Shown here one piece after another: positions 2,477-62,664 of a stretch of DNA of 64,000 nucleotides (positions are counted from its first letter, which is position 1; every line of letters starts with the position of its first letter). Under the pieces are notes generated by a model. That model did no database searches, had not been told where the DNA came from, and saw nothing but the letters and a program-made list of their open reading frames with translations. A program made the translations under genes and the position numbers. This DNA is from a virus, in IMG/VR virus record IMGVR_UViG_3300045988_183746; one strand, given 5' to 3'.

Positions 2477-2484
2477 TATCTTTG
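2477..2484 (+). promoter_or_regulatory. Bacteroidota -7 promoter element TATCTTTG upstream of 2529 gene
   Basis: TAnnTTTG consensus about 45 nt upstream of the ATG. Confidence 0.5.
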
Positions 2485-2528
2485 TATCAGAGAATTAAAG
2501 AGATATGTAACCAATAGACCTAAAGAAT

Positions 2529-18925: not shown

Positions 18926-18940
18926 TAAGCTTAATATTAG

Positions 18941-19213
18941 TTATTTCTTCCAATTATTACACGATTTAACAGCTTTAATTATAAGAATACCAAAACCTGT
19001 AAGCAAAAATAGAAGGATTATTAAGTAATCATTACTACAGCCTTTTTCTTCTAAAAGAAAGAAATACTCAGAATACATAATGATGGAAGAAATATAGGCC
19101 AACACAAGATATTCCGGCATCTTTGATTTCAAATGTATTTTTTTATTTCCCATACTAAAGAAAACTAAAAAGAATGGGACTGTACTTAGTGAATATAATA
19201 TTGAATTTCGCAA
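18941..19213 (-). CDS. Hypothetical small membrane protein (about 3 TM helices)
   Basis: 90-aa ORF in the AT-rich island; one of the few minus-strand ORFs. Confidence 0.3.
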   Translation of the reverse strand: MRNSILYSLSTVPFFLVFFSMGNKKIHLKSKMPEYLVLAYISSIIMYSEYFFLLEEKGCSNDYLIILLFLLTGFGILIIKAVKSCNNWKK

Positions 19214-19925
19214 GGAAACAATAATATTATGGATGAATATATATATTATCAGTATTGTAATTATCTATATTAGCGAAAATAAAAATTGTATATATTATTA
19301 TACATAGCAAATGAAGTTTTGGGATTTCATTTCTGCTTAATACACTGTTAAAGAAAACAAATAAGCGAATGATATTGTCCATAGTGTAAGTTCTATATAG
19401 ACTTTGCCTAGCGTTTTAACGAGTCATAAGCCAATATGCCATCAAACGGCCATCAAATATTATGCGTTGTATATTAACGGTTTACGATTCGTCAAACAAT
19501 ATGTTTTCTACCTAATATATCCTCCTTATTAATTCTGTATGATGGGCTAAGATCGTTTTATTTGGTAAAAAATAAAATCAGGTGATACTTATATTCTATC
19601 GGCAAGATGTTTTCTATGAATTTTTCCAACAGGCCGTCCCTGTCAGTCATAAGGCCCCTGAATACTATAATCCCTTCCACCTTCCATATCACTTTGCAAA
19701 ACAGCAGAACAAGGGAATAAGGTTGGAATGAAGGAAATAGGTTAAGACAACATACTGATTGCTTCCGTTTTCATGCAGCGTCCCGCATATCCTTTCACAA
19801 TAGCAGGCTGAATCTTATATTCTCCTTTCATCAAAAAACGAGCAGGTACGCAAACTTTCCGTGGCAATTATTTGTATATATAATAAATCACAGGTATTTT
19901 TGCCACAGGATTAAAGAAGACACGC

Positions 19926-20279
19926 ATGAAGACAATGAATCAAATTATTGGCGATAATCTGAAAAGAATCAGAGAATTGTCCGGCTTCACGCAGGAGCAG
20001 ACAGCAAAGTCTGTCGGCATCGAGCGTTCGGCATACAGCAATTATGAGGGAGGGACAAGGGAAGTCCCTTATGATGTCTTGGAACGGATTTCAAATATAT
20101 TCGGCTGTGAGCCTTTCATCCTATTTGAGGATAATATTCAAGCGGACAATGAGATTCTGGCCGCTGCCTTTAGAATCTCCGATTTGGAGGATGATGACTT
20201 AAAGGAAATTGCGAATTTCAAGGATATTGTGAAATCATACCTGAAAATGGAACGGATAGCCCAAAATGAAGCCGAATAA
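19926..20279 (+). CDS. XRE-family helix-turn-helix transcriptional regulator
   Basis: IGDNLKRIRELSGFTQEQTAKSVGIERSAYSNYEGG is a classic Cro/C1-type HTH. Confidence 0.85.
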   Translation: MKTMNQIIGDNLKRIRELSGFTQEQTAKSVGIERSAYSNYEGGTREVPYDVLERISNIFGCEPFILFEDNIQADNEILAAAFRISDLEDDDLKEIANFKDIVKSYLKMERIAQNEAE

Positions 20280-21962: not shown

Positions 21963-22744
21963 GGATTGGAACTCTTTTTTATAGATTACTCTTCTCTCCT
22001 TTTTCTTTATTAATTTCTTTTTGCTCTCTTCGGGAGTGAATTTCTGAATCTATGATTCATCAATAATTTGGAAAGGAATAGTGTTATTTATTGTATTACT
22101 CTATATAGTATATTTCTACACATGCGGACATCTATTTTATAGGTTTTCTGCTTATATGGTAAAGTAATTTATAAATGGTAATATATATAATATACATATA
22201 TACAATAAGTTATTGTTAGATTATAACTATATTTGTATATCAAATTAAACGAATTATCAACTATTTAAAATCGAAATTATATCAGTTATGAACTATTTAC
22301 TTCTGTTTTTATTTATTGCTTGCTTTGTAAGCATGTCATTGGGTTTTGCATGCTCATTATGCCATTGATTGCAGCCGCTATTTGTAAAGGCATATTAGGT
22401 TATTATAATGATGAATTACTTAGACCAGAAAGACTTTTCGGAGCGTTCTGCCTAATGATAGCAGGGTTGGTCGGTACACTAATATTTATTTATTAAACAT
22501 AACCAGAATATATATTTTAAATAGTTATGAAGAGTCTATTGACTTTTATCATCAAAAGAAATAGACTCTTTATACTATAATTATATTCAAAAACAGTGTC
22601 AATAAAATAGTTTTTCATTTATCCTGATTGATCCTTTTGTATCGCTTTCTCAATTTCACTAAATCTTTTTCCAAAGTATTTAAATTTTTCTGTATCAACT
22701 GTATATTCTGATTGTTGCTTTAATATTGTTTTACTAATTCGCCT

Positions 22745-23332
22745 ATGGTCAATATAGCGTTAGCATATAGTAGATTTAAGGGATATGTCCCCTATACGCA
22801 ACAGGAAACAAGAATGAACCGGGAGATAAAGAATGTGGTCAGAAATGCAAGGGAGGTTAACCGCCGGCTTCATTACCACCGGTTGATGACCGGATCATAC
22901 AAGGCCCTGTTCCTTATGTTCGGGCAATACATATCCCGGGAAGACCAGAAGATGACCCTGAGGACGCTGCAAGGGGAGTCACCGGAGGACCTGGGAAATG
23001 AAACAGGGCATAGCAAAAGCTTCGTGGTCCATTCCTGCGAACGTGCCATTAACGAGATCCATTACTATTGTTCCCTTTTACGTGGCAATCCGGAGGGCAT
23101 GGGAATCCTGGTGGACCTGATTGGAGAGATTATCGAGAAGGAAGAGGAAAAGAAGAAGAAGGAAGTCTGCAATGGGGTCCTCAAAAGGAAGGAACCGTTG
23201 ACCGACGGAAGAAAAGAGCAAGCATTCACCTATCCTACGGATGTGGAATACCGGGAAGATGATTTGTGGATGGATACAGGCTGTCAGGAATTTGCCGGGG
23301 ACAGCAGCATTACTGAAATGGAAGAAGAATAG
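22745..23332 (+). CDS. Hypothetical protein
   Basis: 195-aa ORF; an alternative start lies at M23. Confidence 0.5.
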   Translation: MVNIALAYSRFKGYVPYTQQETRMNREIKNVVRNAREVNRRLHYHRLMTGSYKALFLMFGQYISREDQKMTLRTLQGESPEDLGNETGHSKSFVVHSCERAINEIHYYCSLLRGNPEGMGILVDLIGEIIEKEEEKKKKEVCNGVLKRKEPLTDGRKEQAFTYPTDVEYREDDLWMDTGCQEFAGDSSITEMEEE

Positions 23333-23828
23333 CCGGGCACCTTTCATTCCCTTCTGGAAAACAGTATGCCGGGCAACCGTTGTTTCAAGCGGTTGTCCGG
23401 CAGCTTTTATTCTGGAACAAGGCCGCTTCCTTCAGACAAAAGACGGGATATCCTCCATCACTTCCGGGAACGCACCCACGTTCCCTTTTCCCTTGTCTGT
23501 ATGTTTATACCGCATATATATCCATCTATGCAAACTTGTGATTTCCGAATTCATTACATTTCCATTCAAGCCAAATGTTAAAAGCGGAAGGTCATGCCAA
23601 GCTCTATCATTGTCAACAAATTTTCAAATTTGATTTTTTCGGACTGAATTGTTAGTTATACCCAATTGATGGTTTGGTACTAAAAAGTATATTTTTCCCG
23701 CTTGAATGGAAAAGTTTTAACCATCCGTTATCATACTGATATTATGATAGTTACCGTATATTCACATATTATATAGCTACCTTTGTAGTATAAGATAATA
23801 GAATACTAACCGCCTAAAATTAAGGAAT

Positions 23829-24722
23829 ATGAATGATTTGCTTAGTCTGTTTGACGAAATAGAAACCAAGCCCGTAAACATGATTCCAGAAACTGACCGG
23901 ATGATTGTCGATAATTACTGGAACCTGTTTATGGAAAAATTCAACGGATTGCGGGCTATGTGGGCTGAATTTGTGGAGAGAGACAAATCCAATACAAACG
24001 ACAAGTTCAAAATCAACTCTTTGAACTATATATCAAGTCCTTTCTATTCTCATGTATGGGAAGAGAATTTGGATCGTTTCGATTATACGTTCAAATATGA
24101 CATAGTAAATTGCGAAAAGTTGATTCAAAAACTATTACGAAGTATCGAATCAAAGGTTTGCGATTATTTCTCCAAAACTTATGGCTGTAATATAGAATCT
24201 GATCACTGCCTTTCAGAATCTTTATTTAAAGAAGAACGATATAATGGTGAGTTACCTTCATTAGATTTGATTCTGGAGCATATTATCAGTCAGAATGACG
24301 GTATGTCATTTGAAGATAAGGGCGATCATGACACAAAATTGAATATTGGCAATCACCTTAAACATAAAAACATCAAATTGACATCAAAAACAGTAACAAT
24401 CGAATATGCTTTCCATACAAGGTATTACAGTTTTGAACCGCATTGGGAGGATGTGGAAAAAATACTGGATGCCGTGGTTTACTGTTTCTTCCAAAGTCAC
24501 GATTTATTTCATATCCTCTCAAATGCGGATGAATCACTTTTAAGGCGTATGGAAGCCGGAAGTGCGTTATCCATTTCCAGTGAAGCGTCCAAAATGGAAC
24601 AGATTAAATTATTCAAGAACCAAAAAATGTCCATCAAATTTCGAAAAGCCGAAGAAGCCCAGCTCTTTTACAATTTTGCTACCGAGATTAAAGAGATGGC
24701 AAACAAAAAATATCAACGATAA
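23829..24722 (+). CDS. Hypothetical protein
   Basis: 297-aa ORF immediately upstream of the MTase-helicase gene (13-nt gap). Confidence 0.65.
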   Translation: MNDLLSLFDEIETKPVNMIPETDRMIVDNYWNLFMEKFNGLRAMWAEFVERDKSNTNDKFKINSLNYISSPFYSHVWEENLDRFDYTFKYDIVNCEKLIQKLLRSIESKVCDYFSKTYGCNIESDHCLSESLFKEERYNGELPSLDLILEHIISQNDGMSFEDKGDHDTKLNIGNHLKHKNIKLTSKTVTIEYAFHTRYYSFEPHWEDVEKILDAVVYCFFQSHDLFHILSNADESLLRRMEAGSALSISSEASKMEQIKLFKNQKMSIKFRKAEEAQLFYNFATEIKEMANKKYQR

Positions 24723-24734
24723 TCATTCCTTAGC

Positions 24735-27700
24735 ATGTACAAAGATTTACAACAGATAGTTCCGACCCAAAAACGTGCAGAGATAAACGATAAGATTCTC
24801 TATTGTATTGACACACATAACAAGGCTGTCACTTCCGAGGTAGTATATAACTGCTACACGGGAGCCGGAGGGCTGCACAATCTGTCATTTAATGATTTCA
24901 ACAACTTCCACGATTATACGGAGGCTAAAAAAGAGTTTGAAATGGGGCAGTTCTTTACCCCTCATGCGGTTTGTCAGCTTATGGTTGAAATGGCGGCTCC
25001 CTCCCAGTCCGATCGGGTGGCCGATTTCTGCTGTGGCATGGGCAATTTCTTCAACTGGCTGCCGGATGGGACGTACACCTACGGTTCCGAACTTGACCCA
25101 AAGGCGGTAAAGGTGGCACGCTTCTTGTATCCGGACGCACATATCGAATGCCGGGATATTCTCTATGCCGCCCCGGAAGGCAAGTTTGACTTTGTTTTTG
25201 GCAATCCCCCATTTAATCTGAAATGGCAAGTGAACAACCTGCCTGTTTTGTCACAACTCTATTATTGCCAGAAAGCTGCCGAATATCTCAATCCGGGTGG
25301 ACTGTTGCTGCTTGTTGTTCCGGCTTCATTCCTCGCTGACGGGTTTTGGAACAAGTCTATGATATCCGAGATAAACGACAGGTTCAACTTTATCGGGCAG
25401 TGTAAGCTGGAATCCGATACGTTCGGCGAATACCAGGTGACCATTGAGACTAAGATAATGGCTTTTCAGCGAAAATCCGACCATCTGGAGAATGTGGCAT
25501 ACTCTTCTGCATTTGTTTCCCTTATGGATCTTCGTACCCGTGTGGCACAAGCCCGTGAGACCAAGCATGAGTTACGCCTGAAACTTGCTCGTGAAGCTAA
25601 GGAGAATTCAGAGCTTCCTGAATTTGAATACAAGCTGGCCAAGTATATGTATGAGATACGCATCCAGCCAAGCATCAAGGACAAGTACGGTCAATGTCTG
25701 GCTTTTGTCGAGAAGTTCCGTACACAGAAACCGCCAGAGAATGCGACCGAGAAAGAATACAAACATTGGTTGCAGCACGTGAGAATTTCCGAGAAGCAAG
25801 TACTTAACCGTTTGCGCAAGATTGTAAGAGGACAAAACGACATCAAGACTGACCGCATTGCACTTGTAAGACAGTCTTCCGGTTTTGCCATCAAAACATA
25901 CAGTTCCAGGATGGGCAAGGTTCTGAAGGAACTGAATGTTTCCCCGAAACTCTTCCTGAATATTCACGACTTGTTGCTGTGGGGTGATACCGTAAAGTCC
26001 TACTTTTCTCCTATGGCACAGACTGTCATAGAAGGGGTGGATGCCTGCGAGAAAGTTCTTTCCCGTAAACGCAAGGAAATGGAACGCCAACAACAGGCAT
26101 TCTGCGACATGCTGCCATCCGAAAACATGAAAGTGTATGTCGATAAGCTGACATTCAAGAAAGCGGACGGTACTCAGTATGCACTTACTCCCCTTCAAAA
26201 GAGCGATGCCATAAAGCTGTTCTCCAAAAGATACAGCCTAGTAAACTGGCAACAGGGGTGCGGAAAAACAGTCGTGTCTTTCCTCTATGGCAAAATGCTG
26301 TTGGACAATCAGAAGGTACGCAACGTCATCGTGGTGGCTCCGGCGGTGGCTACCAACCTTACATGGTCGGAGTTCCTGACCGTTCAGGGTGTGGCTTTCC
26401 GTAACATCAACCGTAAGGACGAAATCAACACCGCACAGCCAGGCGAGTTCCTGATCCTATCGACATCCATGCTTGGAAAAAGAAAGCGTGAGCTGAGACA
26501 GTTCCTCAGGCTGACCGCCCGGAAGCACTGCCTGATTTTTGATGAATCAGACGAAATCTCCAATGCGGCCAGCAAGCGGACACGGCATATGCTAAATCTG
26601 TTCCGACACCTGCCGTACAAGATGCTGTGTACCGGAACAACAACACGTAACGATATATCAGAGATCTATTCCCAACTGTCCTTACTGTACAATAACTCCT
26701 ACAATTTCATATCCATGAGCAGGTATCGGTACGAGCAGGACGAGGACGGGGATTTTGTTCCGGTTGACAATGAATATCTGTACCGACCCCTTCCCGTCAA
26801 ACAGGGGAACCGGATTTTCCGTTCGCTGTTCTCACCGGGCAAGAAATCGGTTTTTGGCATCCGCAAGAACTCACAGGACATCTACAACAGCGATGACTTG
26901 AAGAAGATTCTGGATTATACTATCATTACCAGACGGTTTAAGGAGGTGGCCGGCGACAAGTACGAGGTAATCAATGACCAGATTCTCCCCGGAGTAGGAG
27001 AAAAGGCGGTATATGACAAAATCCTGAATGATTTCTACGAGATTCTGCCACGATATTTTCAGTCAACAGGTGACAGCCGGAAAGATGCCGCCCTCAGACT
27101 GGTGCGCATCATAGAGCTGTTGCGTCGGGCTTGTTCCACAGCTCACCTGATGCCGGGGTATTTCGGATCGGAGTTTCCGGCAAAGGCCGGCAAGATTATG
27201 GGACTGGTGCGTGAAAGCAAAGGTCTGGTTGCAGTAGGATGCATCTCTTTGGAATCTCTGTCTTTCTATACGGATCTGTTCAAACGGTTCATTGACCGTC
27301 CGCTGTTTGTCATTGACGGCAGTGTGCCCTTTAACCGCCGCAAGAAAATCATTGCGGAGTTCCAGCAGTCGGGCAACGGTGTTTTGTTGAGCACCCAACA
27401 AAGTTTGAGTTCATCAGTAAATATTCCGAGCTGCAACGAAGTAATCATTGAAGCCTTACAGTGGAATATTCCACGGATGGAGCAATACTACATGCGTTTT
27501 ATCCGGTTCGACAGCACGGATTACAAGCACGTACATTTTGTGACTTATGCGGACACGATTGAACAGAATATACTTGCTCTGGTCATGTGCAAGGAGAAGC
27601 TGAACGAATTTATCAAATCTGGTTCTATACATGAGGACGAAGAGATTTTTTCCGAGTTCGGTATATCAGCCGATCTGTTCGACAACCTCATGCAAAAGCA

Positions 27701-27755
27701 ATATGACGAAAAAGGCCAGCTGTATCTTAGTTGGGGTGAGCAGAAGGTAGTTTGA
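24735..27755 (+). CDS. N6-adenine DNA methyltransferase fused to SNF2-family helicase (DarB/polyvalent-protein-like)
   Basis: N-terminal motif I VADFCCGMGNFF and motif IV FGNPPFN. C-terminal half has Walker A GCGKT, DExD-like LIFDESDE, SNF2 motif III LCTGTTTRND and helicase-C motifs (LLSTQQS...QYYMRFIRFDS). Confidence 0.9.
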   Translation: MYKDLQQIVPTQKRAEINDKILYCIDTHNKAVTSEVVYNCYTGAGGLHNLSFNDFNNFHDYTEAKKEFEMGQFFTPHAVCQLMVEMAAPSQSDRVADFCCGMGNFFNWLPDGTYTYGSELDPKAVKVARFLYPDAHIECRDILYAAPEGKFDFVFGNPPFNLKWQVNNLPVLSQLYYCQKAAEYLNPGGLLLLVVPASFLADGFWNKSMISEINDRFNFIGQCKLESDTFGEYQVTIETKIMAFQRKSDHLENVAYSSAFVSLMDLRTRVAQARETKHELRLKLAREAKENSELPEFEYKLAKYMYEIRIQPSIKDKYGQCLAFVEKFRTQKPPENATEKEYKHWLQHVRISEKQVLNRLRKIVRGQNDIKTDRIALVRQSSGFAIKTYSSRMGKVLKELNVSPKLFLNIHDLLLWGDTVKSYFSPMAQTVIEGVDACEKVLSRKRKEMERQQQAFCDMLPSENMKVYVDKLTFKKADGTQYALTPLQKSDAIKLFSKRYSLVNWQQGCGKTVVSFLYGKMLLDNQKVRNVIVVAPAVATNLTWSEFLTVQGVAFRNINRKDEINTAQPGEFLILSTSMLGKRKRELRQFLRLTARKHCLIFDESDEISNAASKRTRHMLNLFRHLPYKMLCTGTTTRNDISEIYSQLSLLYNNSYNFISMSRYRYEQDEDGDFVPVDNEYLYRPLPVKQGNRIFRSLFSPGKKSVFGIRKNSQDIYNSDDLKKILDYTIITRRFKEVAGDKYEVINDQILPGVGEKAVYDKILNDFYEILPRYFQSTGDSRKDAALRLVRIIELLRRACSTAHLMPGYFGSEFPAKAGKIMGLVRESKGLVAVGCISLESLSFYTDLFKRFIDRPLFVIDGSVPFNRRKKIIAEFQQSGNGVLLSTQQSLSSSVNIPSCNEVIIEALQWNIPRMEQYYMRFIRFDSTDYKHVHFVTYADTIEQNILALVMCKEKLNEFIKSGSIHEDEEIFSEFGISADLFDNLMQKQYDEKGQLYLSWGEQKVV

Positions 27756-31464: not shown

Positions 31465-31569
31465 TCTCAGGGCGGCCTTGATGTTTTGGAGAAGGACGTC
31501 TCCCTATGGGGCAATGTTCAATGCCCTTTCATCCCCAAAACAGTCCGCTCAGATCCCCTGTAGGGGTTG

Positions 31570-33415
31570 GACGGGGGTGTGTCGTAATGCACGATGCACC
31601 CCCTTCTTTTTTCGTTAGCTATAAAAATCAGTTACTCTTCTTTAAGCTGCGATATTTTGACTATTACTTCGGTTTATGTGTTCCCAGCATCTAAATAGAG
31701 CAGCTGTAAGCTCATGAAACAGTTTAATCAGCCAGTTTATACCTTCTTCTTTCATTTTAGCACACATTTTCTTTATATTGAAGGCCATGGCAAAGAAGCA
31801 AAAGTCCATGAAAACCTTATCCTTTCCAAAATGACGGAAACGTTGGTAGTTCATATTGTATTTTATTTGTCCGAACACAGCTTCCGGTTCTATACATCTT
31901 TGTTTTCTATGTTTCAGCCCTTCCTCGGAACAGAGCAACTCTTTGGCTTTCTGCTTGTATCTTCTGAGCCTGTGATTCAGTTCTATCGTTCTGTTTCCTT
32001 TTGCTTTAAAACATCGGCATCTTAGCGGACAGCCTTCACATCTGATAGCTCTGTACCTGGCATTTTCGCTTACATATCCAGATGCAGTTTTCTGATGTCT
32101 GGTCCCTATCCTCTGCATCCTTTGTCCCATGGGGCAGATACAATAGTCATGTTCTTCATTGTAGTAGAAGTTTTCTGCCTTGAACGGATCCGGTTTGAAT
32201 CTCGGCCGCTGCTCCATGTGGAAATAGTTATATTTGACGTAAGCTTCCATGCCGTTCTCTGACATGAAGCGGTAATTCTCCTCGGAACCATAGCCGGAAT
32301 CGGCAACCACCGTATGAGCCATCCGGTCATACCTGTTTGAAAAAGATTGCAGGAAAGGGATCATGGTCAGTGTATCCGTAGGGTTCGGGAAGAGTGCAAA
32401 ATCGGTGATGAACTGGTTCTCGGTGCCGATCTGAAGGTTGTAACCGGGCTTCGTCTGCCCGTTACGCATGGCATCCTCCTTCATTCTCATGAAAGTTGCG
32501 TCCTTGTCCGTCTTGGAATAGGAATTCCTTTCTTGCAGCGTGTCCAGATGACTGTCGTATTCCTGGAGTTTGTCCCTATGTTCTTCCAGCTCCTTCAGCT
32601 GTTTGCGTCTCTTTTTCAGCTCAGTCTTTTCCTCCTTGGTGGAAGGCTCGGGAACCTGTTCCAGCACATGACGTAATTCTCCCGCCATTTCGGTCAGCAT
32701 GGCCGGAGTGAACTCAACCTCCTCATTACTTTCCGAAGACTTTTCTTGGGCGATGACATCGTCTATCTGCCCTAGCAGGACATGTATCTTCTTCATCAGG
32801 CGTTCACGGTTCCGCTCAACCGTTTTTCGCCAAACGAAAGTATACTTGTTGGCTTTGGATTCAATCTTTGTCCCGTCAATGTATTCCACGTTCAGGCTGA
32901 TGAAGCCTTTGGAAGAGAGAAGGAGTACGGTTTGGGTAAACACCTCGTTGATTTCCTTCTTCACCCGATTGCGGAAACGGTTGATGGTAATGAAATCCGG
33001 TTTCTCATATCCGGCAAGCCAGATATAATGAATGTCACGATGAAGGAGTTTCTCTATTTTCCGGCAGGAGTAGATGTTGTTCATGTAGGCATACAGAATG
33101 ACCTTGAGCATCATTTTGGGATGGTAAGGGCTACGACCGCATTCTTTATATAACTTCCTGAAACTTTCAAGATTCAAGCTTTCAACCAGAGCGTCAACCA
33201 TGCGCACCGGATCGTTTTCTGCAATATCCTCATCAATTCTTTGAGGAAATAGCACTGTTTGATTGGGGATGTAAGGACGATAATGTATCTTTGCCATAGT
33301 AAAATTTGTATGCTTAAAGATACAAAATCTTTAGGTAATAACAAAGCCCCAGCTTGTGAAAGTCGGGGCTTTGTGCATAAACAACAAGAAGGTGTGCTTT
33401 TTGACACACCTTCTT
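31570..33415 (-). mobile_element. IS1182-family insertion sequence (ends approximate)
   Basis: A single 551-aa transposase. Both flanks carry GGTGTGTC..GCAC-containing palindromic ends (31573-31600 and the palindrome AAGAAGGTGTG...CACACCTTCTT at 33386-33415). Confidence 0.65.
31642..33297 (-). CDS. IS1182-family DDE transposase
   Basis: MAKIHYRPYIPNQTVLFPQRIDEDIAENDPVRMV... N-terminus and overall architecture typical of IS1182/IS5-superfamily transposases. Confidence 0.88.
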   Translation of the reverse strand: MAKIHYRPYIPNQTVLFPQRIDEDIAENDPVRMVDALVESLNLESFRKLYKECGRSPYHPKMMLKVILYAYMNNIYSCRKIEKLLHRDIHYIWLAGYEKPDFITINRFRNRVKKEINEVFTQTVLLLSSKGFISLNVEYIDGTKIESKANKYTFVWRKTVERNRERLMKKIHVLLGQIDDVIAQEKSSESNEEVEFTPAMLTEMAGELRHVLEQVPEPSTKEEKTELKKRRKQLKELEEHRDKLQEYDSHLDTLQERNSYSKTDKDATFMRMKEDAMRNGQTKPGYNLQIGTENQFITDFALFPNPTDTLTMIPFLQSFSNRYDRMAHTVVADSGYGSEENYRFMSENGMEAYVKYNYFHMEQRPRFKPDPFKAENFYYNEEHDYCICPMGQRMQRIGTRHQKTASGYVSENARYRAIRCEGCPLRCRCFKAKGNRTIELNHRLRRYKQKAKELLCSEEGLKHRKQRCIEPEAVFGQIKYNMNYQRFRHFGKDKVFMDFCFFAMAFNIKKMCAKMKEEGINWLIKLFHELTAALFRCWEHINRSNSQNIAA

Positions 33416-34767: not shown

Positions 34768-34834
34768 TCCGTAATGCGCGGAAGATGACAACATCTTCCT
34801 TATTTTCCTTGCACAGGAAGCAACTCCTGCAGGG
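34768..34834 (+). repeat. Conserved ~65-nt palindrome-containing element, copy B
   Basis: TCCGTAATGCGCGGAAGATGACAACATCTTCCT...GAAGCAACTCCTGCAGGGG. Confidence 0.6.
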
Positions 34835-35035
34835 GAGATGCCCCCATCTCCCTTTATCCATATTCAAACACCCTTATTTTCTGTCACACAATTCCCCCAT
34901 AGAAGGTGATATTTCAAAGTTTTAGGCCAATGCTTCAATAGGAAAGTCAGCTTCTGGGATCCTGAAAAATAATAGCTCTTAATACTTTATTATTCAATAT
35001 TTTATCATTATATTTGCAATAGAAATCAAACATCA

Positions 35036-37032: not shown

Positions 37033-37641
37033 ATGGACATAAAGACAATAGAACGTGAAGCTGTATCTTCAGCAGTGATTGATTTCGGAATCTTTAATTC
37101 CGAGAAGAACGATTATTATATCAAAGGATTCCTAACCGGTGCCCTCTGGCGCATCAACTCAGTTTGGCATGAACCGTTCGAACATCCGGCAGACGGCCAG
37201 TATTTGACTATCCTAAGACAGGGAGATCAGATACTTTCGGAAATCGCTCCTTGGAAAGACGGTAAATATCATGGCAAGGTACACTCACAGATCTCCAGCA
37301 AAGGATACGAGGTGATTAAATATGCAGACGTATGCGATCTGATTCCGGAAATGAAGGGTATCGATTTGAATATGTCTGACAGATCCGCAGAGTCTGATTC
37401 GAATGGCAAAGAGAAAATGGTAGAGAAAAAGATTCATAGAATCCTGATATGTCAGATAAATGAAGAGGTGAATCTGAACGAAACGCTGCTTAACCAAGGA
37501 TTCGACAGTCTGGATGTCGTGGAAATCTGTATGAAAATAGAGAATGAATTTGATACCTCTTTCGACTTCAACTGGGTCAACGACGAAACGACAGGTTCGG
37601 AGATTATCAATTATGTGAATCAAACATTAGCCAACAAATAA
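37033..37641 (+). CDS. Hypothetical protein with C-terminal acyl-carrier-protein-like (phosphopantetheine-binding) domain
   Basis: NETLLNQGFDSLDVVEICMKIENEFDTSFDF matches the ACP helix II motif (G-x-DSLD-x-VEL) around the conserved Ser. Confidence 0.55.
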   Translation: MDIKTIEREAVSSAVIDFGIFNSEKNDYYIKGFLTGALWRINSVWHEPFEHPADGQYLTILRQGDQILSEIAPWKDGKYHGKVHSQISSKGYEVIKYADVCDLIPEMKGIDLNMSDRSAESDSNGKEKMVEKKIHRILICQINEEVNLNETLLNQGFDSLDVVEICMKIENEFDTSFDFNWVNDETTGSEIINYVNQTLANK

Positions 37642-38278: not shown

Positions 38279-38651
38279 CAATTTTGTTGTTCACTTGTGG
38301 GCACCCTGCCCGGAAGCCAACACCGGCTTCCTATGTAGTTTAATATATAATCCTATAAGAATTAAAATTGATAGAAATGGGGAAATTAGCTTACCGCTGC
38401 AAACGGCCACACAACAAACCATTATGGCTTTTGCGCATTCAGTGTGACATATCTGTGGATTTTATCAATGAAGAGTATTCGGAAGAAGTTCTGCCGGAAC
38501 TTAAACAGTATATTGATAAAAAGATTCTGGATTTGGTTTAAGCAGGAGGAATCAAACGGAGTTTTGTCACTACTATGCTGAAAAAGGAGGGACAGAAAAC
38601 CGTGTTGTGGATTGTCCGTAATGATATTCCACTCCAGCAATATTATATAGA

Positions 38652-39334
38652 GGGAGTAACTCCCTAAAAATGGTGTCCGCTTCAATGGTAAAGTAGGGTT
38701 GTAAGTTAAAATCAAACCTCTTTACTCATTATGTAAGTGTCTGAAAAAGAATTAGTATCTTTACATCAGTAAAGAAAATCAAAGACAATATGGAAGAATT
38801 TAATATTCACGAAGTAGCAGAGGAAAACAATCTGGATGTGATTAGTACCACAACCGGGAAAAATGGATATCCACAGTCGGTTAGATATGCAATCACCGGT
38901 TTCCCTAATTTTTCAGAGGCAGAGAAATTGGCCGAGAAATACGGATTGCGTATCACTACTTTCTGGAAAAAAGCAGGTTGGCAACTCTATGTCAGAGACC
39001 GCAATACGACATTCGAGCCGATGGGCATTTCAGCCGAAAATTATGGCGATGATTACATGGCATTCGATTCAAGCAGTGCGGAATCGTTTTATGAAGACGA
39101 AGTGAAACCATTGCTGGATGACATCAATAGCCTTGAAGACTTGGAGAAATTTGTGTCTGGCCGCAAAGAATTGCTTGACGAGATCAAGAGTATCGACGAA
39201 ACCCAATTGGTAATAGCCTGCCATGGCCATTATTATGAGACGATAGATAAGGAAACAATGGAATGGTCGTTCGATTCGAATACTTATGTTATCGGAGTTA
39301 TCAAAGACTAATAATTAAGCGTATGAAAACATAT
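38652..39334 (+). repeat. 683-bp direct repeat, copy 1 (promoter plus acidic-protein gene plus first 12 nt of next gene)
   Basis: About 98-99% identical to 54704-55386. Confidence 0.9.
38790..39311 (+). CDS. Acidic hypothetical protein, possible ArdA-like anti-restriction DNA mimic (speculative)
   Basis: 173 aa with a net strongly acidic D/E-rich central region (GDDYMAFDSSSAESFYEDEVKPLLDDINSLEDLEKF); a duplicate lies at 54842. Confidence 0.65.
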   Translation: MEEFNIHEVAEENNLDVISTTTGKNGYPQSVRYAITGFPNFSEAEKLAEKYGLRITTFWKKAGWQLYVRDRNTTFEPMGISAENYGDDYMAFDSSSAESFYEDEVKPLLDDINSLEDLEKFVSGRKELLDEIKSIDETQLVIACHGHYYETIDKETMEWSFDSNTYVIGVIKD

Positions 39335-40157: not shown

Positions 40158-42590
40158 ATGAGTCGTATATTAGAATCACTGAATGACAGACAGCGTGAGG
40201 CTGTCCAGGCTACAGAAGGCTACTTCCGTATCATTGCCGGAGCAGGCAGTGGCAAAACTAAGACTTTGACACATCGCTTTGCCTATCTGGTGCAGGAAAT
40301 CGGTGTTCCTTCCAACCGAATCCTCTGTGTTACCTTCACCAACAAGGCGGCAGCTGAAATGCGTGGCAGAGTAAAGCAGCTTTTGGGCGAGAACATCACT
40401 GACGAATACATCTGTACTTTCCACAGTTTCTGTGTGAAGGTTCTCAGACGCGAGATCCAGCGATTGGGATACCAGCAGACATTCAGCATCCTGGATATGA
40501 CTGACCAGAAATCATTGATCAAAGAGGTATTCGAAGAAATGGGTCTTTCATCCAATGACGGCATTACAGCCAAGGATGCCCTGAAACACATAGAGATGTG
40601 CAAGACCGGAGAGGGATGGGAACATGTTGTCAAGCTGCTTGTCGCTCCCAATGACCCTGTCATCCCGGCAGAAGCAGAAGTGAAAGACAGGATCCTGCTG
40701 AATTACCTGACCCTGCAGCGCAAGAACTTGTCCTTGGATTTCAATGACCTGATTTCCTTTACGCTGTATCTTCTTCAGACAAACCATCAGGTGCTTGACA
40801 CTTGGTCAAACGCTTTCAGCTATATCATGGTTGACGAGACACAGGACAACTCCAGACGTCAATGGGCCATGCTGGAATTGTTGGCTAAAGCTTGCCGGAA
40901 CTTGTTTGTCGTAGGAGATCCTGACCAGGCCATCTATTCTTTTAGAGGGGCACGTCCCGAGGGGTTGGTCAAGTTTGACAAGGTGTTCTCCCCATGCACC
41001 ACGATAGTGCTGGACCAAAATTACCGTTCAACACCTACTATCCTTGGAGCGGCCAACGACATCATTGTACACAACCGTTTACGTGTGAAGAAGGAATTAT
41101 ACACCGACAACGTTGATCCGGGCAGCCCGATTGAATGGATTCATGCCGATAATGACAAGAACGAGTCACTATATGTGGCATCCAAGGTACAGAGTTTACT
41201 TGAAAATGGAGCCAAGTCTGATGACATCGCCGTATTGTTCCGTGTGTCTGCCCTCTCCCGTTCCGTCGAACAGGCGTTCATCCAAAATGGTATCAAGTAT
41301 CAGGTGTTTGGTGGTATGCGGTTCTTCGAACGCAAGGAGATTAAGGATGTCATGGCTTATCTGACCATGGCCGAGACTCCCGACAATGACATGGCTTTCC
41401 TTCGGACATACAACTATCCGTCCCGTAAGTTGGGAAAGGCTTTTATCAACCGGATTAAGGAACTGGCCAAAGCGGACGGAAGCTCATACTTTGCCGCCCT
41501 GCTCAAGCATTATGGTTCTGTCAAGGAGGTCACCCGCTCCGGTGCTGCCGAATACATCAAACTGGCCAATCAGATTCAGGGACTAAAAGGCGGCTCAATT
41601 TCTGACTTGGCAACATATATTTTGGACCAGACCGGTATCATGAAAGAATTACGGGAATCTGAGGATACCGAAAGGCTGGACAACGTAGTAGAGCTTCAGA
41701 ACTCCATCCTGTCTTATGAAAACGAGCATAAGGATGATGAAGATTTTTCATTGAAGACATACCTTCAGGACATTTCCTTGTACACCAACGTGGATGCCAA
41801 GGATAAAGAAGACAGCATCAAACTGATGACCATACACCAGTCCAAGGGACTGGAATTTCCCTATGTGTTCCTTATCGGATGCAACGAGGGTGTCATGCCC
41901 AACCAGCGGTGTGTGTCTGAGACCCGTCGTGAAGGGTTGGAAGAGGAACGCCGGTTAGCGTACGTGGCCGTAACCCGTGCCAAACTGCAACTGTTTATCA
42001 CCGAGAACGAAGGACAATTCTACGGTGGCGGCAACAGGGTGCCGTCCAGGTTTATCTTTGAGATAGACAGCAAACGCATCCAACGTAATGGGTATGTGCC
42101 CGAATACCTGGCAGAGATGACCCGGAAAATCATCCAAAATGAAGGACTGGAATTTGATTCCAATGGAGATTATGATGTGCTGACAATCGGAACACGTGTC
42201 AAACATCCGGCATTTGGTGACGGTACCATTGAAAAGGTGGAAAGTTCCCGTAATGAGTATCTTATCCGGATGGACCGTACTGACAGCCTGATGCATATCC
42301 GTATGGACTATAAGGGACTCACAGTGATTACAGACGCTCCCAAAGACGATAATACGACTGACTGTTTACCTGCCGATGAACCGGAATCCCAACCAACGGA
42401 AGAGGTGGTTGAACCCACTGCCCCGGCTCTCATGTGGAAAGCCGGAGACGAAGTAATACACCCGCTTTTCGGTCTGGGAAAAATCATGGAGGTGAACCCA
42501 GACAGCAGGGAGTATTCTATCTATGTGAACCAAGGTGGGTTTACCATCTCCGTAGATTTCAATTTTGACGGGCTGAGAGCCAAATCTTGA
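40158..42590 (+). CDS. UvrD/PcrA/Rep-family superfamily-1 DNA helicase with two C-terminal Tudor-like repeats
   Basis: Walker A AGAGSGKT, canonical UvrD motifs (VTFTNKAA, VDETQD, ...), and a C-terminus with GTRVKHPAFGDGTIEKV and GDEVIHPLFGLGKIMEV repeats. Confidence 0.92.
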   Translation: MSRILESLNDRQREAVQATEGYFRIIAGAGSGKTKTLTHRFAYLVQEIGVPSNRILCVTFTNKAAAEMRGRVKQLLGENITDEYICTFHSFCVKVLRREIQRLGYQQTFSILDMTDQKSLIKEVFEEMGLSSNDGITAKDALKHIEMCKTGEGWEHVVKLLVAPNDPVIPAEAEVKDRILLNYLTLQRKNLSLDFNDLISFTLYLLQTNHQVLDTWSNAFSYIMVDETQDNSRRQWAMLELLAKACRNLFVVGDPDQAIYSFRGARPEGLVKFDKVFSPCTTIVLDQNYRSTPTILGAANDIIVHNRLRVKKELYTDNVDPGSPIEWIHADNDKNESLYVASKVQSLLENGAKSDDIAVLFRVSALSRSVEQAFIQNGIKYQVFGGMRFFERKEIKDVMAYLTMAETPDNDMAFLRTYNYPSRKLGKAFINRIKELAKADGSSYFAALLKHYGSVKEVTRSGAAEYIKLANQIQGLKGGSISDLATYILDQTGIMKELRESEDTERLDNVVELQNSILSYENEHKDDEDFSLKTYLQDISLYTNVDAKDKEDSIKLMTIHQSKGLEFPYVFLIGCNEGVMPNQRCVSETRREGLEEERRLAYVAVTRAKLQLFITENEGQFYGGGNRVPSRFIFEIDSKRIQRNGYVPEYLAEMTRKIIQNEGLEFDSNGDYDVLTIGTRVKHPAFGDGTIEKVESSRNEYLIRMDRTDSLMHIRMDYKGLTVITDAPKDDNTTDCLPADEPESQPTEEVVEPTAPALMWKAGDEVIHPLFGLGKIMEVNPDSREYSIYVNQGGFTISVDFNFDGLRAKS

Positions 42591-43998: not shown

Positions 43999-44267
43999 TC
44001 TATATTGGAATCCGGACAAGGCAGGCTGACACAGCTTTCCTTGTTCGGCAACAACTCACACAGAGGGGTATCGGCATGTTTTCTTGCCAACGCAGACCGA
44101 CCACGGTCTGCTGAAATATGGGTGAAATATCGCCGATCGTGGGGTATTTATGGTATCCGCAATAATGGAAAAGTCCGACCTGATACTACTCTTTCCCTTT
44201 TGTTTTCCGGAACTATGAAGACTCCCTATATTTCTGTATATTTGCATCATAATCAATGAGATAAAAG

Positions 44268-51269: not shown

Positions 51270-51293
51270 GGAGTCCCACAACGGACTCCTATT
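51270..51293 (+). repeat. Hairpin element GGAGTCC-CACAAC-GGACTCC-TATT (family 2), immediately followed by an iteron-core copy CCACCTATGGGG (51288-51299)
   Basis: 7-bp perfect stem, plus a Rep-iteron core motif about 50 kb away from the origin. Confidence 0.5.
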
Positions 51294-51434
51294 GTTACCA
51301 CCTATGGGGATAAAGATTGAGATCCTTTAAGAGGGAGAACTTAAGCATTTGGTTTTGCTTAAATGAGAATGTTTTCATCGCCCACCATTAGATCTTTCTT
51401 ATTGATGTCATTATTTAATAGAACCATATTTATG

Positions 51435-54598: not shown

Positions 54599-54622
54599 CG
54601 GGAACGCACACCCGTTCCCTAT
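54599..54622 (+). repeat. Palindromic element CGGGAACG-N6-CGTTCCCTAT (family 1), copy 4
   Basis: Reads cgggaacgcacacccgttccctat; a degenerate copy (GGGAAC..GTTCC) lies just upstream at 54559-54579. Confidence 0.6.
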
Positions 54623-54703
54623 CCCCTAATCTGGTGACATTTGGAAATAAGCATAACGAACACAGAAAGAACGCAACCTGAAACTTTGCGATTTAGTTAT
54701 ACC

Positions 54704-55386
54704 GGGAGTAACTCCCTAAAAATGGTGTCCGCTTCAATGGTAAAGTAGGGTTGTAAGTTAAAATCAAACCTCTTTACTCATTATGTAAGTGTCTGAAAAA
54801 GAATTAGTATCTTTACATCAGTAAAGAAAATCAAAGACAATATGGAAGAATTTAATATTCACGAAGTAGCAGAGGAAAACAATCTGGATGTGATTAGTAC
54901 CACAACCGGGAAAAATGGATATCCACAGTCGGTTAGATATGCAATCACCGGTTTCCCTAATTTTTCAGAGGCAGAGAAATTGGCCGAGAAATACGGATTG
55001 CGTATCACTACTTTCTGGAAAAAAGCAGGTTGGCAACTCTATGTCAGAGACCGCAATACGACATTCGAGCCGATGGGCATTTCAGCCGAAAATTATGGCG
55101 ATGATTACATGGCATTCGATTCAAGCAGTGCGGAATCGTTTTATGAAGACGAAGTGAAACCATTGCTGGATGACATCAATAGCCTTGAAGACTTGGAGAA
55201 ATTTGTGTCTGGCCGCAAAGAATTGCTTGACGAGATCAAGAGTATCGACGAAACCCAATTGGTAATAGCCTGCCATGGGCATTACTATGAAACGGTAGAT
55301 AGGGAAACAATGGAATGGTCGTTCGATTCGAAAACATATGTTATCGGAGTTATCAAAGACTAATAATTAAGCATATGAAAACATAT
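54704..55386 (+). repeat. 683-bp direct repeat, copy 2
   Basis: Matches 38652-39334 with a few substitutions clustered near the 3' end. Confidence 0.9.
54842..55363 (+). CDS. Acidic hypothetical protein (duplicate of the 38790 gene; possible ArdA-like)
   Basis: 173 aa, differing from copy 1 at 3 residues (I/V, K/R, N/K). Confidence 0.65.
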   Translation: MEEFNIHEVAEENNLDVISTTTGKNGYPQSVRYAITGFPNFSEAEKLAEKYGLRITTFWKKAGWQLYVRDRNTTFEPMGISAENYGDDYMAFDSSSAESFYEDEVKPLLDDINSLEDLEKFVSGRKELLDEIKSIDETQLVIACHGHYYETVDRETMEWSFDSKTYVIGVIKD

Positions 55387-59178: not shown

Positions 59179-59664
59179 ATGAAAGAGCAACATCTTTACA
59201 TCGGTCGCTTGGTCAAAGACGCTGACCAACGTGAAATCGGCGAGAACGTAGTATTTAACTTTACCATTGCAGTCGATTGTGGCTATACCGACAAGCAAGG
59301 ACAATGGGTAGACCAAGCCAAATTTATTGAATGTGCTTTCTGGAGAAGCAAAAAATCCACTTCCGGTATCCGCTACAGTTCAGAAAGACTGGTAAAAGGC
59401 AATCTGGTGCAAATAACATCCCACAGCATGTCAGCACGTGCCTATCAGGAACGCGAGAATGACCAACTTAAATATGACAACAATGGTGATCCCGTATTGC
59501 GCACTGTCCAGACAGCAAAAGTGTCTGAAATTGAGTTTCTAATCGTAGACAAGAGTCGTCTCAGCCAGCAGAATACACAACAGCCTGCACACTCCAATCA
59601 GTCACCAGTCGTTGTGGCACAGTCCGAGACAGCAGACAATATCAAGGATGACTTGCCATTCTAA
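59179..59664 (+). CDS. ssb: Single-stranded DNA-binding protein
   Basis: OB-fold N-terminus (LYIGRLVKDADQREIGENVVFNFTIAV...), a Gln/Pro-rich linker and the acidic C-terminal tail DDLPF. Confidence 0.85.
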   Translation: MKEQHLYIGRLVKDADQREIGENVVFNFTIAVDCGYTDKQGQWVDQAKFIECAFWRSKKSTSGIRYSSERLVKGNLVQITSHSMSARAYQERENDQLKYDNNGDPVLRTVQTAKVSEIEFLIVDKSRLSQQNTQQPAHSNQSPVVVAQSETADNIKDDLPF

Positions 59665-59760
59665 AAATCAGGATTACTGAAAAAGTTGTTTTGTTGTTCA
59701 TAAAGAGAAAGAGGAAAGTTGGTTGTGAAACCAGTTTCCTCTTTATCATTAATCACTCAT

Positions 59761-61002
59761 TCATTTATAGTAAGTCCCCTTACTTTCATCGTACTTATAG
59801 CCCATCCTTTTGGCAAACTTGCCTACAGTATTGATTTCACCAGGTACATTACTACCATAAGCATTTACATAGGCAATCCATTTTTGTTTCATCTGGTCGA
59901 AATTCAGTTCCTCTCTCTCAGCCGGTGGCATATCCCGCAAAATGTCTTCCGGTTTGATGTCAAATGCCATCTTATCAAAGAGATTCGCCATGTACTCAGC
60001 TTCTTCTTTGACTTTGGCATGATTTCTTTTGACACAATCAATTTCAGCATGCTTTTTAGTCTTATTGGCAGGAGATGGAATGCTGATAATGTTGATTTCA
60101 CTGGGTTGTTCCACGTAATTTTCCTTCATTTTGACATCAAATGCCAGACCGACATATTTTCGGCACTTACGTTTGGCCCATACAGCTACAGTGATATCGG
60201 TAAGCTCATTGATGTAGTTGATGGATTTAGAGCTGACCTGGTTATTGTTAATGATCTCCATTTCAACATAGGTAACATCTATTTTCACAAATGTTCTCCC
60301 TTTTGGTTTTTTCCGAATTCCCAAGACTTTGTTAAAGAATCGGGTTACCGCATTTGGATATTGCGTTTCGTCATAGGTTTTGTCGGTGGCTTTGACTAAC
60401 TGGGCCTTCAGTTCGTCCACGCTGACTTCCATCATTGTTTTCAGGTTTGCAGCTGACTTTAACCATGGATAGAGCCATGCCTGTACCTCATTATTCAACA
60501 AGTTGGCTATGGTGGGAGTAACCTTATTGTACCGTTGGAGAGAAGTGATAAAAGGCTTGGCTGATTCAGTCAGCTTATACATGATGTAGTCAGTCTCGGC
60601 ATTGTATCCAAAGTACTCAAACCAATAGATATTCATAAAACTGACACCTTTGGGGCCTTGCTTCACAATCTTAAAGTAAGGCATGCAGGTCTTTATTTCT
60701 TCTTCCAGCTCCTTTATCAGATTATAGTTTATCTTTGTGGTCGTCAGTCCCAGATACTTGATAAGGTCTTTGCGTTTTATAGCATAGTCACTGTATTTAA
60801 ATAGTTCCGGATTGCTTTCTTGTAGAGTAACATTTTGGCTGATTGTAATCAGCAAGCGGAAGTACCGGATGTTCCTGATCTCAAATTTGACATTTTTGAA
60901 ATCATAAAGGGCATCTGGAATCCTTGCTGGCTTTTTGCCGTCGTATCTCTCTATGCAGAATGTTTCCTTAGGCAAATCAGTTTTGGTTTCTTTATTTGAC
61001 AT
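59761..61002 (-). CDS. Putative plasmid replication initiator protein (Rep)
   Basis: 413-aa ORF transcribed divergently from the + strand array; its upstream region (61.06-62.5 kb) is packed with iterons. No confident family assignment from sequence alone. Confidence 0.6.
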   Translation of the reverse strand: MSNKETKTDLPKETFCIERYDGKKPARIPDALYDFKNVKFEIRNIRYFRLLITISQNVTLQESNPELFKYSDYAIKRKDLIKYLGLTTTKINYNLIKELEEEIKTCMPYFKIVKQGPKGVSFMNIYWFEYFGYNAETDYIMYKLTESAKPFITSLQRYNKVTPTIANLLNNEVQAWLYPWLKSAANLKTMMEVSVDELKAQLVKATDKTYDETQYPNAVTRFFNKVLGIRKKPKGRTFVKIDVTYVEMEIINNNQVSSKSINYINELTDITVAVWAKRKCRKYVGLAFDVKMKENYVEQPSEINIISIPSPANKTKKHAEIDCVKRNHAKVKEEAEYMANLFDKMAFDIKPEDILRDMPPAEREELNFDQMKQKWIAYVNAYGSNVPGEINTVGKFAKRMGYKYDESKGTYYK

Positions 61003-61349
61003 AAGTTTTTTATAATGAATGAGTTACGATTACTAAATTACTCCAATAATTTTAAATCAACAAAAAAGCAGTCAAAAAACGGGGATAATTTTGCACGTTT
61101 TAACAAAGCTGTCCTCACAGGACGTGAAATTCCACCGTTTTTCCACTACAGGTGAGATTTCCACCTGTGACCACTTTTTCATTTATAGTAACCACTAATA
61201 GGGCGAATAAGCTGTATTTTACCACATAATCGGGAACATTTCACGTTGATCCGGATATTTTCGGGCAATTATAACCATTCATGAGGTAATTGTGCTAGTC
61301 CGGGAACGCGATAATATGCCGCTGGCATCAGATGATAACCTATCGTAAT

Positions 61350-62530
61350 ATAAGCAGCTGTGGGGTAAATTAACCGATACCATCCCCCCCACCCCATAAA
61401 TAGGTACATTTCGTGAAGATTGCGATAGTATACACTTAATATACACAGTTGTAGGGATATAGACATAATTTGAATATACTGATAATCTGACAATTATAAA
61501 ATATGGGAGAATGTATTGTAACAACTTGAAGATGATATAATTTACCCCACAACTGAGTACATTACGAATCTCACAAAATGGCATTCAATCAAATATAACC
61601 TATCATAGGGCATAATATTCCCCACTAGAAATGTTCATCAGTCATGAGGAAAACCTCAAAAATTGTGGATATTTCCCCATTTATGCAAATATCTCTGGCT
61701 TTTCAGACTGTTTTTGTCCCAAAAATAATCACCTATGGGGATTTCTGAGTGATTGGTAGCATTAAAGAATGAAATATGATGATACTTTGAGGGGTTTATA
61801 ATGTAACCACCTATGGGGTAAAATGGGTAATTTCCGTTATACAGCCCACAGCTGGTGACATTTCAGCGCTCATTTTCTCTGTTTTTTCCATATATAACCA
61901 CTGATAAGGATAAAAGACTAAGAATCATAACAAACGGAAACTTTGATATTTAAGTCAATATATTGGAAAGATTTACAATCATATTGTACTCAATCATGGG
62001 GGATTAGGAATGTGAAAAGGATTTTTACAAATTACCATGGATGACGCCATTCTAAGGATACTGATAACAACAGGCAAATATCACCGATTGTGGGGAAAAA
62101 TATGCAATTTGGGGTTATTTTTCCCCATTACCGGTTACATTACATCCATATTGCCGATGCCGTTAAGTGTTAAGCGGAAGTAAATGCAATTTTGCATAAT
62201 ACTATATTTCAGAAATTTACAAAATACAATGGTTCCAATTTACCCCACAGCTGATGATATTACAGGCCGAAAACCGATGATATTAAAAGGTTCGTAATAT
62301 ATTATTACAAATCGTAACCCCACAATTGGGTACATTACGACCCCACAGTTGAGTACTTTTTATCCCCATAGGTGGTTATATCTTAAGCAAATTTACCCCA
62401 TAGGTGATGACATAATATCCCCACAGGTGGTGATATTATATATATTGTACATATTGATTATTAGACACTTACAACACCCTATACATATAGACATTTTTAT
62501 AGACACTAATAAGACAATAATAGACATACC
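61350..62530. repeat. Iteron-containing replication origin region (oriV-like)
   Basis: At least 12 copies of a ~22-25-bp iteron with core CCCCAYAG(S)TG-RTGAYATTA. Six are tandem and direct at 62239-62445; others in both orientations at 61355, 61539, 61728, 61807 and 61845. An AT-rich stretch with TAGACA repeats lies at 62460-62530. Confidence 0.75.
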
Positions 62531-62634
62531 GGTAGGAGAGAGTTCATTTTAAAATTTTCAAGAGCCTTCGGCACAAAATGTTATTTTAGTGTAAATTAGA
62601 TTGATTTACACTTGCGAATCATAATGAAAATTGA

Positions 62635-62642
62635 TATCTTTG
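62635..62642 (+). promoter_or_regulatory. Bacteroidota -7 promoter element TATCTTTG
   Basis: 23 nt upstream of the ATG at 62665. Confidence 0.5.
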
Positions 62643-62664
62643 CAAGAAACTAATAATCAATCTT

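Follow-up and report, generated by a model that had tools for sequence, protein, structure and literature searches.

Near one end of a 64,000-nucleotide stretch of DNA from the IMG/VR virus record IMGVR_UViG_3300045988_183746 (hereafter the window, meaning this whole 64-kb stretch), a gene for a single-stranded DNA-binding protein (ssb), a minus-strand gene for a protein of 413 amino acids (aa) and a dense field of short repeats lie next to each other. The locus raises two questions, namely whether it is an origin of replication controlled by iterons, and whether the DNA around it replicates on its own. Our analysis indicates that the region is very probably the replication-initiation module of a large Bacteroidales mobile element, with a class-A theta origin under iteron control. 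The module is real, well conserved and of a known kind, of which it is a new member. Its notable traits are the expanded and partly inverted repeat field, the single iterons dispersed far from the origin, a twin replicon nearby and the prevalence of an uncatalogued element. The features discussed are listed in Table 1.

The minus-strand gene had been taken for a replication initiator gene (rep) in a first-pass annotation made from the sequence alone. On sequence profiles and on its predicted fold, the product is a true Rep_3 (WH1-WH2) initiator, which agrees with that assignment. Its Rep3_N (WH1) domain scores 23.5 bits against a Pfam gathering cut-off of 22.4, and when 41 relatives are combined in a profile, it hits RepE of mini-F (E 1e-7, plus another hit in WH2), pi of R6K (2.8e-5) and a WH1 domain structure. 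An AlphaFold (AF2) model built from the alignment of relatives, with a mean predicted local distance difference test (pLDDT) score of 83, superposes on monomeric RepE54 and on the complex of Rep with single-stranded DNA 8AC8 (Foldseek E 2e-7, template modelling (TM) score 0.79, target-normalised), also on pi and, more weakly, on RctB (5TBF, E 2e-5, TM 0.3-0.4). The domains delimited are WH1 (residues ~14-183), WH2 (~191-292), a disordered linker (300-326) and an extra C-terminal domain (327-413). An identical protein in NCBI bears the name 'RepB family plasmid replication initiator protein [Bacteroidales]'. This Rep forms a divergent branch, since only 47 clusters are detectable among 1.84 billion representative proteins; a comparison with phages gave no match, and no relatives were found in two scans of the 185,579 GTDB species representatives or in IMG/VR.

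The ssb product has an SSB domain with an oligonucleotide/oligosaccharide-binding (OB) fold and the C-terminal tip DDLPF. Both genes of the pair described earlier as 'ssb, divergent rep' are present, but rep is convergent with ssb, tail to tail, and only the operon beginning at 62665 is divergent from it. The tail-to-tail order recurs in related elements (L008/L022, L009 and L029), and the two genes are one gene apart in L031; an ssb partner is present wherever the contig continues beyond rep, and the L030 contig, which stops at rep, is uninformative on this point.

Between rep and this operon, no gene was called by any gene caller in any metagenome copy of the gap, which is filled by iterons. 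The unit is about 20 bp long (W-CCCCA-Y-(4-5 variable)-G-RTKAYATT) and consists of two conserved blocks whose starts are 11 bp, or one helical turn, apart. There are 12 copies of the core CCCCAYARNTG in the window, where 0.47 would be expected, and ten of them are in 61355-62429. With a position matrix built from the ten copies of the core in the gap (the window matrix), 15 sites scored 17 bits or more (the good sites, ten on the plus strand and five on the minus strand) and at least three others scored lower; all fall within 61112-62437. The clustering upstream of rep of at least 12 repeat copies, as first reported, was thus confirmed with a higher count.

Two parts can be distinguished in this field. 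The core array consists of six direct iterons starting at 62242, 62317, 62340, 62363, 62395 and 62418 (spacings of 75, 23, 23, 32 and 23 bp), and a seventh copy, now decayed, can be recognized in its 75-bp gap at 62265-62284; all six tandem direct copies that had been placed at 62239-62445 were recovered on the plus strand. The accessory field comprises good sites at 61347(-), 61391(+), 61438(-), 61544(+), 61722(-), 61800(-), 61843(+), 62077(-) and 62122(+), and weak sites starting at 61112, 61221 and 61983. One third of the sites of the field are inverted, and three head-to-head pairs are formed (61347/61391, 61800/61843 and 62077/62122). Short-read contigs often stop inside the iteron field, at window-equivalent positions 61082, 61161, 61376 and 62406. 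Closer to rep, an inverted repeat at 61148-61169 shares CACAGGTG with the iterons and is, from its sequence, a candidate Rep-dimer site (operator). It does not overlap the putative -7 box and stays a candidate only; the other candidate operator of the rep promoter is the inverted iteron nearest rep, which is kept in all relatives.

The core array abuts an AT-rich stretch, in which TAGACA starts at 62462, 62488, 62500 and 62521 and AAGACA at 62511, for an expectation of about 0.025 TAGACA per 70 bp. The segment 62434-62530 is among the least stable duplex of the region (50-mers starting at 62434 and 62479), and the instability sets in at the last iteron. An AT-rich block with TAGACA repeats had been noted at 62460-62530, and it is indeed a low-stability stretch with four TAGACA and one AAGACA. 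WAGACA repeats are found at the matching place in the relatives L022 and L030 and in L037, whose Rep is 45% identical.

The layout was also compared with that of relatives. Regions upstream of rep were recovered completely from L022 and L030 and partially from L009 and L031 (Rep identity of 65-68%), and completely from L037 (45%). The motif CCCCAY..GGTKAYATT(AC) is present in all five, and direct phased repeats lie beside rep in the window and in these five relatives. From rep outward, the complete regions consist of about 170-190 bp free of sites, one inverted iteron, direct iterons and the AT-rich WAGACA block; they end with a Bacteroides-type -7 box (called by TAnnTTTG, which we take to be the consensus of Bacteroides promoters), followed by genes of about 195 and 130 aa. 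Same-size homologues of the 195-aa and 129-aa neighbours lie downstream of the origin in L008, L030 and L037, and neither gene has a match in Pfam, NCBIfam, PHROG or PLSDB. In the relatives at 65-68%, the first direct iteron stands head to head with the inverted one across a 20-28-bp spacer. Window positions 62239-62545 align column by column with L022 and L030, including the steps of 23, 23, 32 and 23 bp. The persistence of this architecture down to 45% Rep identity argues for long-term selection.

The number of copies is what varies. Four iterons (three direct and one inverted) are present in the relative at 45%, 11-13 in gaps of 0.63-0.79 kb in the two complete relatives at 65-68%, and at least 15 over 1.66 kb in the window, which has three head-to-head pairs against a single one, nearest rep, in each relative. 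As relatives have the same layout with fewer copies (4-13), the window field is a conserved origin that has expanded. Of all PLSDB records, plasmid unnamed4 of Bacteroides uniformis JCM13288 (CP054202.1) alone has a Rep homologue that could be detected (25% identity over 82% of the query). It carries, about 90 bp upstream of its rep, four tandem 22-bp repeats of identical length (AATTACATAGTAACATGGGA) within 92 bp, a compact textbook origin in contrast to the 1.66-kb field of the window, and these repeats are unrelated to the window iteron. The motif is therefore the same down to 45% Rep identity and different at 25%, as well as for the second Rep described below; the repeat follows its Rep, which is the behaviour to be expected of iterons.

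From the fold and the bipartite motif, a Rep monomer would bind each 20-bp iteron through its two winged-helix domains, one on CCCCA and the other on GGTGAYATT one helical turn away. The filled direct array at 62242-62437 would then melt the adjoining WAGACA region at 62438-62530, where the host helicase would load and the product of the neighbouring ssb gene would coat the single strands. The nine good accessory sites, including the three head-to-head pairs, and four remote sites would be non-firing and would most likely restrain copy number, in that they titrate Rep and pair with the origin through it ('handcuffing'); nearby promoters may also come under the influence of Rep in this way. In this putative role of sinks for Rep or of pairing partners, they may be compared with the distant iterons of R6K, incC of F and incA of P1.

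The remote sites are single iterons that lie in the window outside the gap. To avoid circularity, they were sought with a matrix made of 31 iterons from four other elements and no window sequence (the relatives-only matrix), which found four sites of at least 12 bits outside the gap against 0.067 expected, a count that was not reached at any threshold in 300 second-order Markov simulations. With the window matrix, 0.01 sites of at least 18 bits are expected, and the 51291 site exceeds this score. The remote sites are statistically real. All four are intergenic, and for three of them a TAnnTTTG box in front of the next plus-strand gene lies 90-125 bp downstream, the distance being about 125 bp for the 51291 site and the -7 box of a PcfJ-like gene; the fourth has a box with one mismatch. 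Similarity to the origin stops at the 20-bp motif, so the sites are not segmental duplications, and a dispersal as copies of a longer mobile unit was ruled out on the same ground. The 34894 site is kept in a deletion variant (L004), and no further site was found in the 10 kb past either end of the window. GC-rich hairpins with 7-9-bp stems of unrelated sequence precede each remote site by 0-40 nt on the plus strand (34833-34853, 44093-44112, 51271-51290 and 54600-54619); they are probably the terminators of the upstream genes.

Iteron sites outside the origin had already been proposed at two places, of which the one at 51.3 kb stands and the one at 31.5 kb does not, and three more have been added at 34.9, 44.1 and 54.6 kb. 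The core copy given as 51288-51299 is real, with coordinates off by 10 bp: the core CCACCTATGGGG is at 51298-51309, within a full site on the minus strand. The sequence CCCTATGGGG does exist at 31502-31511 but matches only the CCCCATAGG half, without GGTGAYATT, and this 10-mer arises by chance in 7 of 100 shuffles. Being a half-match of less than 9 bits beside an insertion sequence (IS) element, it was rejected as an iteron. The IS element itself, with a DDE transposase (DUF772 and DDE_Tnp_1_6), occupies 31642-33297 on the minus strand, and the half-site lies just outside its end.

A second Rep_3 gene lies past the end of the window. Its product of 456 aa has Rep3_N, Rep3_C and DnaA_N domains, and the module is located at window-equivalent ~66.5-70.8 kb. 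At least 24 TTTCGGAACTTT-type (TTACAYSTATTTCGGAACTTTT) repeats are found in the 2-kb field of this module; they occur in either orientation, some of them as convergent pairs that recur every 190-200 bp, and none of these repeats occurs in the window. A relative at 67% retains both replication modules and the arrangement of the second one. An origin of the twin module by duplication of the first was rejected, as the two Reps are unrelated and show no BLASTP match. A homologue of the large subunit of ExoVII is encoded between the two rep genes, and DHH/RecJ-like and PIF1-type helicase genes follow the second replicon (L016 19415-20390, window-equivalent ~72.7-73.6 kb).

Several observations weigh against the reading of the region as a replication-initiation module. 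No DnaA-box cluster was found: matches to TTATCCACA with at most one mismatch number 20 in the window against 20.8 expected, and only two fall in the gap, one of them overlapping an iteron. DnaA boxes are a common, not a universal, feature of Rep_3 origins, and 61003-62664 does not show it. Several sites of the expanded field are degenerate and the core array has, relative to the other elements, one iteron decayed and one lost, which could indicate relaxed selection. The second Rep_3 replicon is 5.5 kb away, so the first may not be the principal origin. No remote sites are present in L022 over 10 kb to each side of rep, and conservation therefore lends no support to their function. Finally, although several contigs with the exact Rep measure 203-226 kb, one reaches 390 kb (GCA_024125345.1) and one 911 kb; the module may thus be part of a chromosome, in which free firing would do harm. 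The label 'textbook theta-type iteron origin' was too strong. The Rep_3 initiator, the repeat length, the 23-bp phasing and the AT-rich flank do fit it, but the DnaA-box cluster is missing, the field is 3-5 times larger than those of the relatives and one third of its sites are inverted.

These large contigs bear directly on whether the window belongs to an autonomous replicon, a claim of the first-pass annotation that is not established, given the identical Rep on the 390- and 911-kb contigs and the lack of a matching PLSDB plasmid. The module could instead be the conditional replicon of an integrated element, similar to an integrative and conjugative element (ICE) or an integrative and mobilizable element (IME), which would be silent in the chromosome and fire only after excision. 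This alternative, which refines the preferred reading without excluding it, is a serious possibility that we place somewhat below an even chance. A neighbouring window gene is found on a 660-kb isolate contig, and when the contigs are combined, the collinear flanks add up to more than 360 kb. Neither for three window segments nor for the origin was a match found among PLSDB plasmids; when the DNA of the module, of two 25-kb window segments and of the origin was searched against PLSDB and phage records, the only hit was one of 118 bp in a Segatella plasmid. A tyrosine recombinase is encoded at 13079-14029, and shortly before the window there are MobC_2 and HipBA genes. There is also a precedent in SGI1, an integrated island with a rep gene and an iteron origin (oriV) that replicates only after excision (PMC7433901). 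SGI1 would be a model for the window module if the element is integrated, with the differences that its Rep has a RepA_C and not a Rep_3 domain, that its four iterons of 17 bp are accompanied by a DnaA box, and that its firing depends on a helper plasmid. On the other hand, neither an att site nor a chromosomal gene came to light, the window is free of tRNA genes, no junction was seen within 10 kb beyond the window genes, and none of the 8987 assemblies in which the exact Rep is indexed has it on a contig above 1 Mb. The absence of Rep from the GTDB species representatives would be odd for a common chromosomal ICE, the NCBI name is that of a plasmid initiator, and the large contigs could be scaffolding errors. 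The element is extremely widespread, as the adjacent 129-aa protein is indexed in 12,560 assemblies; GCA_024125345.1 and GCA_022835275.1 are examples of isolates that carry it. No close copy of it was found in PLSDB, the GTDB species representatives or IMG/VR, and literature searches did not identify it; pMMCAT was rejected, because it matches 26 PLSDB plasmids and the window matches none.

The decay seen in parts of the field could also mean that the module is the relic of a captured plasmid whose repeats have ceased to support initiation, the element being maintained by the second Rep_3 replicon or by chromosomal replication. Beside the degenerate accessory sites and the decayed and missing core iterons, the much cleaner field of the second Rep next door and the existence of truncated Rep variants speak for this reading. 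We consider it improbable, since contigs with full-length Rep number at least 1000 and those with any one truncated form 52 at most, the architecture persists to 45% Rep identity and the relative at 67% keeps both modules. Even less credence, to the point of being very unlikely, is given to the repeats being a centromere for partition or an array of operators for the downstream operon (the 195-aa and 129-aa genes and those that follow), bound by one of its uncharacterized products. The densest array does abut the promoter of this operon, whose first two genes are without a known function and are adjacent in every case, and the remote sites are all upstream of promoters. However, no ParA, ParB or ParM-like gene was found, and Pfam, NCBIfam and PHROG revealed no partition, regulator or DNA-binding domain in the neighbours. 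Repeat length, 23-bp phasing, an AT-rich stretch and a Rep_3 neighbour make up the standard iteron signature, and the homologous Rep on a true plasmid has tandem iterons of its own. An Rfam search of 58.5-64 kb gave one chance miRNA match only, and hence no sign of an antisense-RNA control element.

Among known systems, the best match of the replication-initiation module by both profile and fold is mini-F RepE/ori2 (PDB 1REP, 2Z9O, 8AC8), with RepE as a WH1-WH2 monomer. In F, direct iterons of about 20 bp phased by about two helical turns lie beside an AT-rich unwinding element; extra iterons (incC) serve copy control and the operator is an inverted partial iteron. The window differs in that its Rep is only 11-14% identical to RepE and has an extra C-terminal domain of about 90 aa, in that its host belongs to the Bacteroidota, and in that at least 15 sites with full-length head-to-head pairs extend over 1.3 kb, against 4+5 copies in F; no DnaA boxes were detected in the window origin. 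The second-best fold match is pi of R6K (PDB 2NRA). R6K has seven 22-bp iterons in its gamma origin and isolated iterons kilobases away that pi-mediated looping connects with it, besides distant alpha and beta origins; these isolated iterons are the closest precedent for single remote iterons. The remote sites of the window, in contrast, are 8-27 kb away in gaps close to promoters; beside them no AT-rich sequence resembling an origin was noted, and there is no sign that they initiate replication. RctB of Vibrio cholerae chromosome 2, the weaker fold match, is not a member of the family; it has four domains and uses methylated 11/12-mers and 39-mers as sites. It binds several classes of sites, including the distant crtS, which tunes initiation.

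A more speculative picture, to which we give a rather low probability, is that of a very large, highly prevalent and uncatalogued element maintained by two unrelated Rep_3 replicons, each with an unusually large field of 15-30 iterons, in which Rep has gained a second role via the remote iterons. If so, single iterons upstream of four operon promoters 8-27 kb away would couple occupancy of the origin to expression, or alternatively would fold the element by origin-promoter pairing.

Few Bacteroidales origins have been defined, and shuttle vectors for gut species rest on a handful of small plasmids. The conserved origin of about 300 bp (62242-62545) and its Rep, from an element present in thousands of gut metagenomes, could serve as a low-copy vector backbone and also as an incompatibility probe. 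The series of 4, 11-13 and at least 15 iterons within the clade, with an unchanged motif, could reveal in what way copy control is tuned by the number of iterons and by remote sites. Whether the element is a plasmid or integrated decides the inheritance of a widespread gene pool that includes methylases, helicases and anti-restriction-like genes.

Table 1. Features of the replication region, remote iterons and second module (window positions unless contig L001 is named).
Feature	Position	Strand	Evidence or remark
ssb gene, 161 aa	59179..59664	+	Pfam SSB E 8.8e-10; TIGR00621; phrog_44
rep gene, 413 aa, Rep_3-family initiator	59761..61002	-	Pfam Rep3_N, profile, AF2 model, Foldseek
Gene-free gap, 1662 bp	61003-62664		between rep start and next plus-strand gene (62665)
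Expanded accessory iteron field	61112..62141	both	matrix scans
Inverted repeat ACAGGTG-N8-CACCTGT with central iteron bases (candidate operator)	61148..61169		read from sequence; ~150 bp upstream of rep ATG
Core origin array, six direct iterons	62242..62437	+	27-30 bits each
AT-rich, easily melted region with WAGACA repeats, candidate DNA-unwinding element	62438..62542	+	
Conserved block CCGGTAGGAGAGAG	62529-62542		3' of WAGACA repeats
Candidate Bacteroides-type -7 box TATCTTTG of divergent downstream operon	62635..62642	+	pattern match
Two conserved genes, 195 aa and 129 aa	62665..63645	+	always adjoining origin
Remote iteron CCCCCATAGAAGGTGATATT	34894..34913	+	20.1 bits relatives-only matrix; 96 bp upstream of -7 box
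Remote iteron ACCCCACGATCGGCGATATT	44126..44145	-	21.1 bits relatives-only, 23.9 bits L022-only matrix; 92 bp upstream of -7 box
Remote iteron TCCCCATAGGTGGTAACAAT	51291..51310	-	20.3 bits window matrix, 21.2 bits relatives-only
Weaker iteron-like site TCCCCTAATCTGGTGACATT	54622..54641	+	14.8 bits relatives-only, 14.5 bits window matrix
Rep2 gene	L001 3132-4502		
Rep2 repeat field	L001 ~980-3030		
Second ssb	L001 232-570		

Library scans of the window proteins describe the rest of the window as a one-directional run of mostly unknown genes, with methylases, an SNF2-methylase fusion, UvrD, LPD1/LPD5, the PcfJ-like gene, the IS element and a group II intron among its recognizable content. The methylases are a C5 cytosine methylase (14529-15614) and an N6-methylase/SNF2-helicase fusion of 1006 aa (24735-27755); a small PP-binding (carrier-protein-like) gene is found at 37033-37641 and a UvrD-type helicase gene at 40158-42590. 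Together with LPD1/LPD5 and PcfJ, these methylase, helicase and PP-binding genes on one strand resemble the anti-restriction 'leading region' of a conjugative element. The group II intron encodes a reverse transcriptase/maturase (RVT_1 and GIIM) at 302-1564 on the minus strand, and the L011 and L014 copies lack it.

The bias of the coding strand dominates the GC skew, from which the direction of replication was not inferred. GC content dips to 0.30 at 18001-20000 and to 0.37 at 22001-24000, against about 0.42 elsewhere, and these low-GC islands suggest recently acquired cargo. A direct repeat of 689 bp, 97-98% identical between 38646-39334 and 54698-55386, duplicates a 173-aa gene. The 16 kb between its two copies are missing from the metagenome variant L004, and a junction from 55386 to 39335 in another variant (L028) reflects either a tandem duplication or an excised circle.

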